Source: Escherichia coli
GTDB taxonomy: Bacteria; Pseudomonadota; Gammaproteobacteria; Enterobacterales; Enterobacteriaceae
NCBI RefSeq assembly: GCF_003334385.1
Contig: NZ_QOWN01000136.1
Length of the DNA stretch: 997 nucleotides
Reading direction: 5' to 3' (one strand)
The notes beneath the pieces were generated by a model. The model had not been told where the DNA came from. It made no database searches and saw nothing but the letters and a program-made list of their open reading frames with translations. The translations under genes and the position numbers were made by a program. Every line of letters begins with the position of its first letter. The stretch's first letter is position 1. Of the stretch, positions 1 to 80 are shown in pieces.

Positions 1-34
1 ACCGGAAAATTTTCATAAATAGCGAAAACCCGCG

Positions 35-46
35 AGGTCGCCGCCC
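35..46 (-). other. cosN: cosN: 12-bp cohesive-end sequence of a lambda-type phage; flanking bases 1..34 continue the phage left end toward cosB/Nu1, which lie off the window
   Basis: Window 35..46 is aggtcgccgccc, the reverse complement of GGGCGGCGACCT, the canonical lambda 5' cohesive end. Window 1..46 as a whole is the reverse complement of the first 46 nt of the lambda genome as I recall it (GGGCGGCGACCTCGCGGGTTTTCGCTATTTATGAAAATTTTCCGGT). Match is from memory, not a search. Confidence 0.85.
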
Positions 47-80
47 CGTAACCTGTCGGATCGCCGGAAAGGACCCGTTG
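47..80 (-). promoter_or_regulatory. cosQ: Phage right-end flank adjoining cosN, containing the expected cosQ packaging-termination element (about 63..76 by lambda spacing)
   Basis: Window 47..77 (cgtaacctgtcggatcgccggaaaggacccg) is the reverse complement of the recalled lambda right terminus (...CGGGTCCTTTCCGGTGATCCGACAGGTTACG), with one apparent difference at window 63. Similarity to lambda ends after about 77. The cosQ position is inferred from its known lambda location roughly 17-30 bp inside the right end. Confidence 0.6.

Follow-up and report, generated by a model that had tools for sequence, protein, structure and literature searches.

Positions 1–78 of the window (by which is meant the whole stretch of 997 nucleotides from Escherichia coli that was analysed) almost certainly represent an uncut lambda-type cos site, more precisely its cosQ-cosN-I2 part. 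To judge from the sequence, the site lies with the same near certainty at its normal place in a lambdoid genome, which here is between the lysis cassette (Rz/Rz1 with the bor/iss moron) and the terminase genes. What has been established is the identity in sequence of each sub-site, together with the genes around the site.

The Joined Lambda Termini

Window 1–46 is the reverse complement of bp 1–46 of phage lambda (NC_001416) with no mismatch, and window 47–78 is the reverse complement of lambda bp 48471–48502 with a single mismatch, at position 63. Over window 1–78, 77 of the 78 bases agree with lambda, and there is no difference in the sticky end, in cosQ, in I2 or in any of the spacings. Both lambda termini are contiguous in the window, the junction being at 46/47, and they lie on the strand opposite to that of the lambda map. 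From position 79 on, the similarity to lambda falls to chance level. When the 77-base lambda junction was searched for with up to three mismatches, there was one match in the window, with one mismatch, and none in 200 dinucleotide-preserving shuffles of the window. A preliminary description of the DNA, made from the letters, had proposed that the left and right ends of lambda are joined here in one cos, and had asked for an alignment of the window start to the lambda ends. The alignment found lambda-type termini, and the proposal is borne out by the matches at 46/46 and 31/32 positions and by the 0/200 shuffles. Of the extents originally given (1–46 and 47–77) both align, the right-end match reaching one base further, to 78.

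Sub-Sites of cos

In lambda, cosN is ca. 22 bp long, and I2, at about bp 18–50 between cosN and cosB, acts at a post-cleavage step (PMC4856287). The order within cosB is R3-I1-R2-R1, and cosQ is a highly conserved 7-bp site that is needed for the second-strand nick at termination (PMC4669245; PMC4856287). In the window all these sub-sites except cosB, which is wholly outside because the window stops at lambda bp 46, are found on the minus strand. The I2 segment (1–29) equals lambda bp 18–46 exactly and has its last ~4 bp beyond the window edge; the missing ~4 bp are present in a near-identical locus of E. coli SCU-104 (see below). I2 is AT-rich, as is the segment found here, and intrinsically bent. 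The terminase nicking site cosN (~22 bp; about 30–51) is identical to lambda across 48498–48502/1–17; its limits are approximate, having been inferred by setting them symmetrically around the sticky-end 12-mer. This 12-nt cohesive-end sequence, GGGCGGCGACCT, is at 35–46, within cosN and between contiguous termini, and is the same in lambda, 434, 21 and phi80; the records of 434, 21, phi80 and N15 label bases 1–12 as the cohesive end. The nicks predicted from the sequence are at 34/35 on the plus strand and at 46/47 on the minus strand of the window, the very positions at which the termini had been expected from the start, and they follow directly from the position of the 12-mer.

The spacer between cosN and cosQ (52–69) holds the sole difference from lambda within the cos match. 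It is followed by cosQ, the packaging-termination signal, which reads GGGTCCT on the minus strand (70–76). Its distance from the right end is the conserved one (24–30 nt, as annotated in the records of 434 and 21), and its sequence is invariant across lambda, 434, 21, phi80 and N15.

Position 63 and the cos Sites of Other Phages

At window position 63 there is a G where lambda has an A on this strand, which corresponds to C versus T on the lambda plus strand at bp 48486. In the junction alignment the base of the window is common to 434, 21, phi80 and N15, and lambda alone differs; as judged from these sequences it is lambda that is the outlier, and the window carries the common allele. The difference had at first been placed in or next to cosQ. 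It is indeed the only one, but it is located in the spacer, 7 bp away from cosQ.

The comparison with the cos sites of 21, phi80, HK97 and N15, which had been suggested as a check, showed all but HK97 to be similar. For this alignment phi80 and N15 were re-registered, since the sticky end is given twice in their records. The identities to the window, for the right end and the left end, respectively, are 31/32 and 46/46 for lambda, 31/32 and 45/46 for 434, 29/32 and 41/46 for 21, 28/32 and 41/46 for phi80, and 28/32 and 34/46 for N15. An HK97-type cos was ruled out: with 9/32 and 13/46 the identities to HK97 are at chance level, and this phage is unrelated here. Phage 434 (OL657227), in whose record the cosQ, cosN and cosB sub-sites are annotated, is identical to the window over 47–77, including the base at 63, and differs in having a T at left-end bp 23 where the window has a C.

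Phage 2B8 (NC_049952; genus Alegriavirus) has its cos in the same register with a few substitutions. It should be noted that the 2B8 record is permuted, its ends being displaced by 7 nt from the true ends of cos; it starts with GACCT... and ends with ...GGGGCGGT. At position 7 of the sticky end, which is exactly where the record is joined, 2B8 shows a T for C; instead of a genuine variation of cosN, this may reflect an error of assembly.

The Mosaic Segment Beyond cosQ

Alignments to 434 and Turner delimit a variable mosaic segment at 79–235, which is not part of cos. The joint is only 2 bp outside cosQ, and the window has ~155 bp where 434 and Turner carry ~430 bp with a DUF3950 open reading frame, which we take to be a homologue of lambda p79. 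Just outside cosQ, lambda, 434, 21, phi80 and N15 have a TTATTATC(N)TTT stretch in common, which is missing from the window. In lambda the sequence beyond cosQ is unrelated, and the bor-cos interval of ~1.7 kb in lambda corresponds to ~450 bp in the window. From ~236 on, the bor-proximal flank of 434 is as in the window.

The end of the lambda match bears on one other conceivable source of the site, namely that a cos fragment of a lambda-derived cloning vector contaminates the assembly. Cosmids and fosmids do carry a joined lambda cos, but in such a vector the match to lambda would continue past cosQ, whereas here it stops at 79. In addition, the base at 63 is not that of lambda, and hundreds of genomes have these flanks, which are natural prophage sequence. 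The probability of a vector origin is next to nil.

The flank type of the window is present in 308 of 5,426 E. coli genomes and is a rarer kind of segment. The only phage record found with the cosQ-proximal flank of the window is that of 2B8 (~94% identity over window 60–210); past the flank the place of bor/iss is taken in 2B8 by a gene for a Rha-like regulator. The joint could conceivably serve as an experiment of nature on how far outward cos must minimally extend, or be the footprint of recombination from an unprotected, nuclease-exposed cosQ end, and might alter the efficiency of packaging termination, but we consider this quite improbable. That phage 2B8 carries the same flank argues for its being simply neutral. 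The mosaic segment is the one mildly unusual feature of the window.

Partly within this segment is a small open reading frame on the plus strand (132–356) with 51 amino acids if read from the ATG at 201 and 74 if read from a TTG. 434 and Turner have almost the same sequence over its 3′ two-thirds (~236–356), and its 5′ part has diverged. Some RefSeq genomes have a hypothetical protein annotated around it. The 74-amino-acid reading (132–353) matched no Pfam family even at E ≤ 10, and no NCBIfam match was found for the small frame either. A weak terminator-like hairpin of 6 pairs with a poor T tail is found at 133–148 on the minus strand, which in the interval from bor to cos is the strand of the late transcript. 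With three such sites in the window versus 0.9 expected, it probably has no significance.

Genes in the Rest of the Window

To the right of the small open reading frame, at 524–817 on the plus strand, is the gene for the outer-membrane lipoprotein Bor/Iss (97 amino acids, lipobox LITGC), of which 90/97 residues are those of lambda Bor. It is annotated as iss in RefSeq genomes, the PGAP name being Iss. This serum-resistance gene is ~450 bp away from the packaging site and is oriented against the late operon. At 849–995 on the minus strand follows the 3′ end of the gene for Rz, the i-spanin (last 48 codons and stop; annotated as rzpD), whose translation equals the C-terminus of lambda Rz and which continues beyond the window edge. 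Embedded in it in a different frame (908–997, minus strand) is the 3′ end of the gene for Rz1, the o-spanin (last 29 codons and stop), with the translation PPPPPAWIMQPPPDWQTPLNGIISPSERG*, which equals the C-terminus of lambda Rz1. On the right side of the window Rz/Rz1 and bor are thus in the order known from lambda.

Bor/Iss, Rz, Rz1 and Nu1 (see below) were identified by identity to the lambda proteins. In the NCBIfam scan Bor/Iss gave two matches far below threshold, and the Rz fragment and the Nu1 homologue gave none. The single match in an Rfam scan at permissive threshold was to ES205; with 21 bits versus a gathering score of 86 it was judged to be due to chance. A promoter scan of the window yielded no site, and of the three weak hairpins from the scan for terminator-like structures none was convincing.

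cosB and the Terminase Genes in a Near-Identical Locus

Since the window itself ends at lambda bp 46, cosB and Nu1 are known only from near-identical relatives. In a search of E. coli chromosomes, 1,102 genomes covered at least 80% of the window. The chromosome of strain SCU-104 matches it over its full length with 99.9% identity, the locus (L001) differing solely at position 210. Leftward of the window the collinearity of this locus with lambda extends through cosB and Nu1, the two elements that the preliminary description had predicted there. When the sub-site annotations of 434 are mapped onto L001, the start of R3 falls 4 bp, and the ATG of Nu1 144 bp, to the left of window position 1. The prediction holds, then, in a locus that is one base away from the window.

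The complete arrangement of a lambda-type cosB is found in L001: R3, I1 (the IHF site), the inverted R2, and R1. R3, R2 and R1 are identical to those of lambda and unlike the R sites of phage 21; for I1 the comparison with lambda went through the alignment to lambda and the site annotated in 434, to which it is identical. Directly downstream of cosB are the genes for the small and the large terminase subunit. The Nu1 gene has a few substitutions relative to lambda, and 179/181 amino acids of its product are identical to lambda Nu1; it is followed by the gene for a full-length large subunit (641 amino acids) and then by those for portal, protease, decoration and capsid proteins. The R sites identical to those of lambda, the I1 identical to that of 434 and the near identity of Nu1 point to the element having the packaging specificity of lambda rather than that of phage 21.

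Before the start codon of Nu1, L001 differs from lambda solely in a 1-bp deletion at lambda bp 137. The deletion (L001 5909–5910) is between R2 and R1 of cosB and changes their spacing by one base. In phage 434 the Nu1 start is at bp 190 versus 191 in lambda; 434 and L001 are both 1 bp shorter, which suggests that 434 may carry the same deletion.

The region left of the window is also the one that distinguishes a phage cos from that of a phage-inducible chromosomal island (PICI), which would have a lambda-like cosQ and cosN without a phage-type cosB and would use Rpp to redirect the terminase of a helper. In cosQ and cosN and in the distance between them, the cos sites of PICIs differ hardly at all from that of lambda (PMC9026076), and the discriminating cosB region is not within the window. 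Nevertheless, Rz/Rz1 and bor are directly beside cos in the window itself, L001 has lambda R sites and Nu1 instead of rpp together with a full head and tail module, and a cos joined to the 5′ end of Nu1 is carried by 3,960 genomes (see below). A PICI cos is accordingly extremely improbable. Lysis genes in the window, and R sites, Nu1 and structural genes in SCU-104, are what was found where a PICI would have been otherwise organized.

Prophage Setting and Source of the DNA

Over 41 kb the SCU-104 locus is a lambdoid prophage, with int (next to tRNA-Arg and fimZ) on one side and a tail fibre gene on the other; cos is mid-way between them, which is where integration of a lambdoid genome would place it. 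A gene for an OmpC-like porin separates Q from the lysis genes in this prophage. One of its tail genes has an internal stop, and a gene of the TraR family is frameshifted; this copy may therefore be defective in spite of the intact cos and, given the stop in the tail gene, may not yield viable phage.

A joined cos in a sequence record does not alone reveal the physical state of the DNA. It had initially been concluded that the DNA is from an integrated prophage, a circular form or a concatemer. The cos is indeed joined, and the best matches are chromosomal prophages, but a further source was omitted from that conclusion: genome records of phages are often circularly permuted, and the joined cos may then be the way in which an assembly represents linear virion DNA. 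For example, the records of mEp332 and Turner hold the cos core at internal coordinates, and that of 2B8 is shifted by 7 nt as mentioned. Against this explanation for the window stands the finding that chromosomes match it at 100% coverage with up to 99.9% identity, whereas no phage record is contiguous over its full length, the best covering 91–92% of it in two pieces with 95.6–96.5% identity. A permuted phage record as the source is therefore improbable, and a prophage, which is what the contiguous chromosomal matches indicate, is the most likely one.

Occurrence in E. coli

Of 5,426 complete E. coli genomes, 4,736 carry the cos core (window 1–77/78), K-12 being one of them; the median among these carriers is 2 copies. 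For a 429-bp query composed of the 5′ end of Nu1, cosB, cosN and cosQ, 3,960 of the 5,426 show a coverage of at least 80%. Of the 9,692 places in E. coli matched by window 1–215, 51 are on plasmid records rather than on chromosomes; they may be phage-plasmids or constructs bearing cos.

In K-12 a joined cos core is kept in the cryptic prophage Qin; it has 98.7% identity to window 1–78 and is beside the Nu1 homologue nohA, which is directly followed by a truncated tail gene. Qin differs from the window in being a truncated remnant and in having other genes (ynfO, ydfO) on the cosQ side. The example of Qin indicates that such cos sites are routine in E. coli chromosomes.

Such remnants also raise the question of activity. 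The site of the window could be of lambda type by descent and yet inert, a relic within a prophage that is cryptic and defective in the way of DLP12 or Qin of K-12; it would then be cut only if a helper phage provided terminase and capsids. The arrangement in Qin fits with this, as do the tail-gene pseudogene and the frameshifted TraR-family gene of the best-matching prophage, and the median of two copies per genome suggests that many of the sites are remnants. On the other hand, the prophage with the 99.9% match has genes for packaging, head, tail, replication, lysis and immunity as well as int, mostly intact, and all sub-sites of cos are free of mutations. We regard an inert relic as unlikely, although clearly worth reckoning with. 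It should also be considered that this explanation concerns the activity of the site and not its identity: a relic cos is still a cos, and the assignment of window 1–78 to the lambda type is the same in either case.

Proposed Mechanism and Significance

That this particular copy of cos is cut we infer from the sequence, and the mechanism proposed is taken over by analogy from the established biology of lambda (PMC4669245; PMC4856287; PMC9026076). After induction and rolling-circle replication, Nu1, the small terminase subunit, would bind to R3, R2 and R1 of cosB left of the window, and IHF would bend the DNA at I1. The large subunit, gpA, would thereby be placed on cosN and would nick the two strands at window 34/35 and 46/47, with 12 bp between the nicks. 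Once the ends have separated, terminase would stay on the cosB end, and the DNA would be pumped into the prohead leftward in the window, that is, towards Nu1; I2 is expected to have its role in a post-cleavage step. When the motor arrives at the next cos, cosQ (70–76) would be needed for the nick in the second strand, with which packaging ends.

A joined lambda-type cos is textbook biology and is nearly ubiquitous in E. coli. The biology of cos as known remains unchanged, and the main value of the finding is in annotation. It gives the orientation of the window and its map position in a lambdoid genome, with the late operon on the minus strand and the order Rz/Rz1 - bor/iss - cos - Nu1, and it provides the exact coordinates to which the virion ends should map if the prophage were induced.
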